Origin: Nitrospinota bacterium
GTDB lineage: Bacteria > Nitrospinota_A > UBA7883 > JACRGQ01
DNA: 64,000 bases
Assembly: GCA_016212275.1 (NCBI GenBank)
Contig: JACRGR010000017.1
Coordinates: forward strand, 25,316-89,315
Direction of reading: 5' to 3'
Shown here: positions 13,539 through 13,757 of the stretch, piece by piece
Layout: each line of letters starts with the position of its first letter
How positions within the stretch are numbered: position 1 is the stretch's first letter
Position numbers and translations under genes: made by a program
Notes under the pieces: generated by a model
What the model saw: only the letters and a program-made list of their open reading frames with translations
Told to the model about the DNA's origin: nothing
Database searches by the model: none

Positions 13539-13757
13539 CTATCGAGGAAAATGCTTGAATGGTTTCAGTCCTAGTTTCATATGTCTTTTGTCGCAACAGT
13601 CAATGCGATAGTCAAGTCTGCTGGTACAGGTTATCTCGTGTAATCTCCCGTCGCATTCTACACACGTTCGCCATTCGCCGCCGTTGGCGCACTTATGTCC
13701 GCCCGCTTTCGCTTGCGTGATTAAGAGTTCATCACTGCGGGGATGTTGTATTTTCAT
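13539..13757 (-). CDS. Small Cys-rich (putative Zn-binding) protein, copy A
   Basis: The pattern is HKCANGGEWRTCVECDGRLHEITC…DCCDKRH. The core is near-identical to the ORF at 48448–48669. Confidence 0.45.
   Translation of the reverse strand: MKIQHPRSDELLITQAKAGGHKCANGGEWRTCVECDGRLHEITCTSRLDYRIDCCDKRHMKLGLKPFKHFPR

Follow-up and report, generated by a model that had tools for sequence, protein, structure and literature searches.

The stretch analyzed here (the window; 64,000 nt of contig JACRGR010000017.1 from a Nitrospinota bacterium) contains an inovirus-like prophage and an integrative and conjugative element (ICE), each of which carries one copy of a small Cys-rich gene. We refer to the prophage copy as mini-gene A and to the ICE copy as mini-gene B (Table 1). 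A previous sequence-only reading had taken the two for the same gene, and this was borne out: both open reading frames (ORFs) are intact, with no frame disruption in either, and the encoded proteins share 52 of 64 residues (81% identity; BLASTP E 4e-39). The core of A follows the pattern HxC-x8-CxxC-xGRxH-x3-C-x8-DCC-xxRH. Searching a six-frame translation of the window with a profile of the protein family described below returned exactly two copies (E ~1e-19 each; next match E 0.65), and a 22-mer from the core matched at A and B only, with 0 matches in 100 shuffles.

At the DNA level, the earlier estimate of about 90% identity over ~170 bp proved slightly generous, as we found 87.7% identity in the 162-nt core and 83% across nucleotides 1–192. 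Similarity extends from the start codon until codon 64, and the flanking DNA is unrelated. Among codons 16–59, 13 differ, comprising 11 synonymous changes and two Glu/Asp swaps, and substitutions fall in third positions only, except for one first-position change in a synonymous Arg codon. For the core, Nei-Gojobori estimates were dS 0.51 and dN 0.019 (dN/dS 0.04), while the nine codons at the N terminus vary almost without constraint. Because the changes are codon phased and synonymous divergence is ~0.5 per site, A and B are true coding genes under strong purifying selection, and their divergence is old, reflecting long independent evolution and not a recently copied fragment. The recent exchange considered in the sequence-only reading is thus not supported. 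An RNA element was rejected as well, given the codon phasing and an Rfam scan that showed two tRNAs only in the window. The closest sequence from outside the window reaches at most 57% identity to A or B, compared to 81% between the two, which fits a gene lineage circulating among elements of this host group. With 53% GC inside a prophage of 44.6% GC, the core of A gives a faint hint of acquisition from a GC-richer source.

Table 1 Features of the two elements, in window coordinates.
Feature	Position	Strand	Remarks
Mini-gene A (ORF A)	13539..13757	-	72 aa, ATG start; inovirus-like prophage, its rightmost gene ahead of attR
Conserved Cys/His core of A, codons 21–59	13581..13697	-	Family alignments and dN/dS 0.04
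Mini-gene B (ORF B)	48448..48669	+	73 aa, GTG start, GAAGG 9 nt upstream; ICE
Conserved Cys/His core of B, codons 21–59	48508..48624	+	Family alignments and dN/dS
Left direct repeat (attL)	6491..6512	.	22-bp exact, ATAATATACCTTATCGGAAGTC; bounds prophage; dif-like by inspection
Right direct repeat (attR)	13829..13850	.	22-bp exact, ATAATATACCTTATCGGAAGTC; 71 nt from A start codon
HTH_3 repressor-like gene	6398..6808	-	Prophage
80-aa ORF	13281..13523	-	AAGGA before ATG; 15 nt downstream of A, same strand
HTH_17 (AlpA/excisionase-like) gene	48033..48281	+	Upstream of B
GC-rich hairpin	48392..48417	+	9 GC pairs; left edge of variable cargo slot
Variable cargo slot	48420..48672	+	253 nt, mini-gene B alone
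231-aa ORF, conserved ICE backbone gene	48673..49368	+	Starts 3 nt past B stop; 57% identical to its counterpart in a related ICE
PD-Lambda-5 A protein	44351-45712	-	E 3e-130
PD-Lambda-5 B/Dam-type methyltransferase	43393-44286	-	E 3e-117

The two copies lie 35 kb apart as an inverted repeat, the sole long one within the window, with 191-nt arms (13566-13756 and 48449-48639) that are 84% complementary and share a longest exact run of 32 nt. This arrangement, pointed out in the sequence-only reading, would allow the DNA repeat and not the protein to be what matters, either as a recently transposed fragment or as a RecA-mediated inversion substrate for the 35-kb segment. Short-read unitigs of SRR12113407 that carry both elements indeed end inside the 32-nt exact repeat (window ~48582 and ~13623, corresponding to L001 1-91 and the end of L002), but at k=31 such breaks are expected at any 32-nt repeat. 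Homologous recombination is limited by minimal efficient processing segments and mismatch-repair barriers, and with 16% divergence and ~32 nt of perfect identity it would be very inefficient; inversion would moreover split both elements. Together with the codon-phased divergence and the confinement of similarity exactly to the ORF, these points make the repeat reading highly improbable, and inversion between the copies only theoretical. The breaks likely account for another result: neither exact-sequence look-ups of both mini-proteins in protein collections nor a word-indexed protein search with copy B gave a match. Short-read assemblies broken inside the repeat would leave the mini-proteins out of protein collections, and the SRR12113407 unitigs illustrate how such mini-genes escape protein catalogues.

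A rare Cys/His-rich family

Using HMMER against 1.84 billion representative proteins, we obtained 49 matches at E<=1e-3 (best 2.7e-9), most of them 58–120 aa long. Three look like chance matches, namely two repeat proteins (P0038 and P0045) and one sequence without the core motif. In genome, viral and metagenome contigs, exact-peptide scans gave no match; a degenerate pattern of codons, written by hand to span C32..R58 of the core, detected 10 IMG/VR contigs, 43 metagenome contigs and two of 185,579 species-representative genomes. In total, the family comprises at least 77 distinct core sequences. No significant match was found by tblastn with three family queries against 50,697 GenBank phage genomes or with copy B against PLSDB plasmids. 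For 44 members, Pfam gave no family match, apart from a sub-threshold YjhX match of the two window copies that is discussed below; PHROGs matched no member, NCBIfam and PADLOC returned nothing significant for the two window copies, and the PDB offered no match by sequence. Pfam showed no domains in four HMMER matches (P0012, P0017, P0039 and P0046) inspected for fusion partners as function hints. A and B, therefore, belong to a rare and previously undescribed family of Cys/His-rich small proteins that occurs almost exclusively in phages and further kinds of mobile DNA, and it is because of this rarity that the family has escaped annotation.

Across the 77 sequences, C23, C32, C35, G37, H40, C44, D53, C55 and R58 are invariant and W29, R38, C54 and H59 near-invariant (>=90%), so that eight Cys/His positions (C23, C32, C35, H40, C44, C54, C55 and H59) are invariant or at least 90% conserved. 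K/R47 is conserved alongside R38 and R58. In one variant, here termed RGC, the RH pair is replaced by RGC, with loss of H59 and appearance of a Cys one position later, the behavior expected of a metal ligand. Most members are basic (pI 8.5–9.5) and lack a signal peptide, and many start with M-x-R-H-x-C. Most free-standing members also end, often at the very C terminus, in a tail of the form Q-G-x3-G-[ILV]-x-D-x-S-x2-M-[WL]. This conserved acidic/hydrophobic tail recalls short peptides that bind a partner protein. The window copies do not have it and fall in a minority with an RH-x2-[ML]-G-L-P tail.

The sequence-only reading had suggested a Zn ribbon from the Cys and His residues. Of this suggestion, the ligands held up but the fold did not. 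A zinc ribbon needs two CxxC/CxxH knuckles, each on its own beta-hairpin, and a three-stranded antiparallel sheet; the family has a single knuckle (C32-x2-C35), and an AlphaFold2 model of the core only, built from a 51-row alignment (predicted local distance difference test score 87.9), shows one short hairpin at the knuckle and a C-terminal helix at residues 56–62. Foldseek comparison of the predicted fold to the PDB and BFVD recovered neither a solved fold nor a zinc ribbon. A generic metal-binding mini-domain calls for at least four Cys/His ligands per metal that are conserved family-wide, and with eight such positions metal binding is plausible. The eight ligands would be enough for two Zn ions or, possibly, for an Fe-S cluster. 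In this regard, a local string, W-x2-C-x2-C-x-G-x-L-H-E...C-T-S-R-D, is shared with the [4Fe-4S] motif CysB in the C-terminal domain of Pol delta; the likeness is not significant (E 1.1 over 21 residues) and the distance to the third Cys is not the same, but by analogy the family metal site could hold Fe-S instead of Zn.

Two groups of known small proteins can be compared with the family. TraR/DksA C4 zinc fingers, such as F-plasmid TraR and lambda Orf73, are likewise ~70 aa long with a Cys-based metal site, occur in phages and conjugative elements, and act on a host machine, RNA polymerase. The present family differs in having eight ligands with one CxxC and a model without a coiled coil. NinF and NinD, Cys-rich proteins from the lambdoid nin region, are of comparable size (~56–72 aa) and likewise come from clusters of short early or accessory genes in phages, and their function is unknown too. 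NinF has a string, CxxCxxKLH...CxxCC, that resembles the family string CxxCxGRLH...DCC; however, homology is not detectable, the ligand spacing differs, the family profile scores NinF at a nonsignificant -0.8 bits, and no family member matches a Nin-protein Pfam model.

Genomic settings of the mini-genes

The ICE starts at a tRNA-Gly gene with a tyrosine integrase adjacent to it and encodes ParM-like, ScpB and TraE/K/B/V proteins. As the sequence-only reading had described, B directly follows an excisionase-like gene and a GC-rich hairpin, which we identified as an HTH_17 gene and a 9-bp all-GC stem. Since only 30 nt separate the hairpin from the start of B, the gene must be transcribed through it. 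For comparison, we located a related ICE on a contig from another sample (L068), which is syntenic at 74–80% nucleotide identity across HTH_17, the hairpin, the 231-aa gene, HNH/Phg_2220_C, 3′-phosphoadenosine-5′-phosphosulfate (PAPS) reductase, ScpB and ParM. Window positions 48364-48419 around the hairpin match L068 6177-6232 at 95% identity over 56 nt, compared to only 68–80% for the flanking genes. Between the hairpin and the 231-aa gene, L068 holds ~1.77 kb with three unrelated ORFs and no family member. Because this syntenic slot is filled by unrelated genes in L068, B is accessory cargo in a swap slot, outside the backbone excision and regulatory core, and the comparison delimits this slot, with the conserved hairpin at its left edge. 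In NCBI, the 231-aa protein has a 100%-identical counterpart annotated as from a Nitrospinae metagenome-assembled genome (MAG). The hairpin is also overlapped by a 57-aa ORF (48278-48451, +) with a 75-aa counterpart in L068 (6037-6264) and a shared ...CDFSSL[KT]AGRSDARPA... stretch, representing either a gene or conserved non-coding sequence.

The prophage occupies a block of 44.6% GC at 6.4–13.9 kb, compared to 58% in the host segment, and encodes a Zot-type assembly ATPase, a collagen-repeat protein, an HTH_3 repressor-like protein and a DUF2726 protein. That A is the last gene before attR was confirmed by its position just inside the 22-bp direct repeat. The repeat has a dif-like look with an ATAA..TTAT core, integrase families had no match among the prophage ORFs scanned, and cumulative GC skew peaks at ~13–14 kb, where gene orientation also converges; these features suggest that XerCD integrated the phage at the chromosomal dif/terminus. 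Excision and circularization would place A immediately downstream of the HTH_3 gene, in the same orientation and across the att site. The 80-aa ORF that follows A is probably co-transcribed with it; it has no family match and is unrelated to the gene after B. A search of IMG/VR with the Zot protein yielded no inovirus relatives, and prophage blastn against a phage collection matched collagen-like repeats only. Synteny evidence for accessory status thus concerns B.

Neighborhoods were tabulated at 33 homologue loci and confirmed the expectation of a link to mobile elements over ordinary chromosomal genes. Nearly all homologues reside on metagenomic phage contigs, where they belong to runs of small ORFs on one strand, as is typical of early or accessory regions in phages. 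Their vicinity includes genes for Endonuclease VII (Endonuclease_7), RecA_dep_nuc, ERF, SNF2 helicases, the large terminase subunit and Acb2/Tad1-like proteins. An all-against-all comparison of three genes on either side at the 33 loci detected no conserved neighbor, and a toxin-antitoxin or any other conserved two-gene module was rejected on this basis. In two IMG/VR contigs, the RGC variant of the domain is part of a polyprotein: one architecture is Phage_portal_3-family domain-InPase (L013 6606-8885, +) and the other continues beyond InPase into a C-terminal ADPrib_exo_Tox ADP-ribosyltransferase domain (L014 1658-5284, -). Portal-InPase fusions have been read as packaged, injected polyvalent proteins (Iyer, Burroughs, Anand, de Souza and Aravind 2017, PMC5512222), and by analogy both polyproteins are probably polyvalent and injected. 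The family also resembles polyvalent-protein domains in being common to phages and a conjugative element. It differs in that no Pfam model matches it, including models derived from that study, and in that most members and both window copies are free-standing; location inside multidomain polyproteins with effector domains was found for the RGC variant alone.

These settings bear on the suggestion that the mini-gene encodes a recombination-directionality factor or excision cofactor common to both elements. B after an excisionase-like HTH_17 gene and A as the gene nearest to attR would agree with such a role, as would a MAG homologue (L024) that abuts a tyrosine integrase. However, L024 is the only integrase-adjacent case, the remaining 32 loci lack one and many look like lytic-type gene arrays. 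L068 shares the HTH_17 gene and a syntenic backbone without having a copy, the scanned prophage ORFs contain no integrase while the dif-like repeat points to XerCD, and Pfam, PHROGs and NCBIfam show no similarity to excisionase or directionality-factor families (winged-helix Xis, HTH_17, Cox and others). We, thus, regard this function as very unlikely. Overall, the family gives the impression of accessory cargo that mobile elements can swap, and not of an excision factor or inversion device.

A second alternative is a toxin like TopAI (YjhX), with the downstream ORF as its antitoxin. YjhX (PF09857 YjhX_toxin) is of similar size and the only database family to give any match, confined to the two window copies (E 0.035, 14.4 bits); in addition, B alone weakly matches NF010240 (E 0.18), and both copies have a tightly linked downstream ORF. 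Against this, 14.4 bits is far under the gathering threshold of 27, none of 42 other family members match YjhX, a BLASTP comparison to Escherichia coli TopAI gave 8 of 27 identities, and TopAI lacks the conserved Cys/His ligands of the family. Neither downstream ORF (80 and 231 aa) is related to the other or to YjhQ/GNAT, leaving the window copies without a YjhQ-like partner; the 33 loci offer no conserved partner either, and L068 keeps the 231-aa gene without the mini-gene. The weak match is best read as chance and the toxin reading as effectively refuted.

A candidate host-directed role

The function we propose starts from a small basic cytoplasmic protein that each mini-gene would produce. 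Its ~40-residue core would form a compact knot held by the eight Cys/His ligands, enough to bind two Zn ions or perhaps an Fe-S cluster. Tailed phages carry the family, as do a filamentous prophage and an ICE, and it also occurs as domains of portal-fused polyproteins predicted to be packaged in the virion. Each element would bring the protein as a stand-alone factor that, shortly after the element enters the cell or is induced, binds a host macromolecule and thereby serves in host takeover, in counter-defence or in establishing the element. The two 81%-identical copies in a Nitrospinae-type host could then mean that each element, being transmissible independently of the other, requires a copy for itself. 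We tentatively favor this reading, a compact two-metal module that acts as each element's own accessory factor on a host macromolecule during establishment, while holding it with somewhat less than even confidence.

In the main competing view, which takes up the common regulator of the sequence-only reading, the protein would be a small metal finger that binds DNA or RNA and regulates the early operon of its own element, functionally similar to Ogr/Delta or TraR, and the two copies would allow cross-talk between prophage and ICE. This view would account for the basic proteins (pI ~9) and conserved R38, R58 and K/R47, for the position of B, 30 nt after the HTH_17-linked hairpin and heading a long rightward ICE operon, and for the place that circularization of the phage would give A, following the HTH_3 repressor gene; the 81% identity would allow one protein to serve both elements. 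Yet none of the 44 members searched match Ogr_Delta (PF04606), zf-dskA_traR (PF01258; both at E<=0.1) or any DNA-binding family in Pfam, and HTH genes are not regularly adjacent at the 33 homologue loci. The related ICE L068 lacks the gene, which places it outside that backbone's regulatory circuit, and location inside portal polyproteins would be odd for an operon regulator. We consider a regulator unlikely, though worth keeping in mind. If the mini-gene were merely another small regulator, the family would be a routine domain of unknown function.

The host-directed reading can also be taken further, to an undescribed two-metal mini-fold that three unrelated classes of mobile element (filamentous phage, ICE and tailed phages) use as a portable effector, neutralizing or hijacking a conserved host component at DNA entry; in tailed phages, it would serve additionally as a module of portal-fused cargo predicted to be injected. 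In that event, each of the two elements would have been selected independently for acting on one and the same host target, which would account for the two diverged Nitrospinae copies. This extension is doubtful in our estimate. If true, a portable host-directed effector would extend the repertoire of proteins brought in at entry by phages and conjugative elements with a new domain of very small size, and would provide a ~45-residue handle for finding the host target. Judged from sequence, the family is a new domain-of-unknown-function family, of moderate interest for its distribution and fusion pattern, whose metal binding, timing of action and host target we infer.

Other genes of the two elements

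Further genes in both elements deserve mention. Next to the ICE integrase lies a complete PD-Lambda-5 anti-phage defence pair (43393-45712, -), consisting of the A protein and the B/Dam-type methyltransferase (Table 1). The ICE early operon has some phage-like content, with genes for PAPS reductase (52750-53580, +; lambda NinC is an annotated PAPS reductase) and for a protein combining HNH and Phg_2220_C domains (49855-51681, +). In the prophage, an ORF at 9752-10204 (+) carries the prepilin-type N-terminal cleavage/methylation motif TIGR02532 (E 4.6e-8), a pilin-like signature that is unusual for a filamentous-phage protein. The collagen-like Gly-X-Y protein (10377-11786, +), whose gene contains ~25 overlapping registers of a 9-nt tandem unit at 11047-11392, is probably a pIII-like adsorption protein of the phage.
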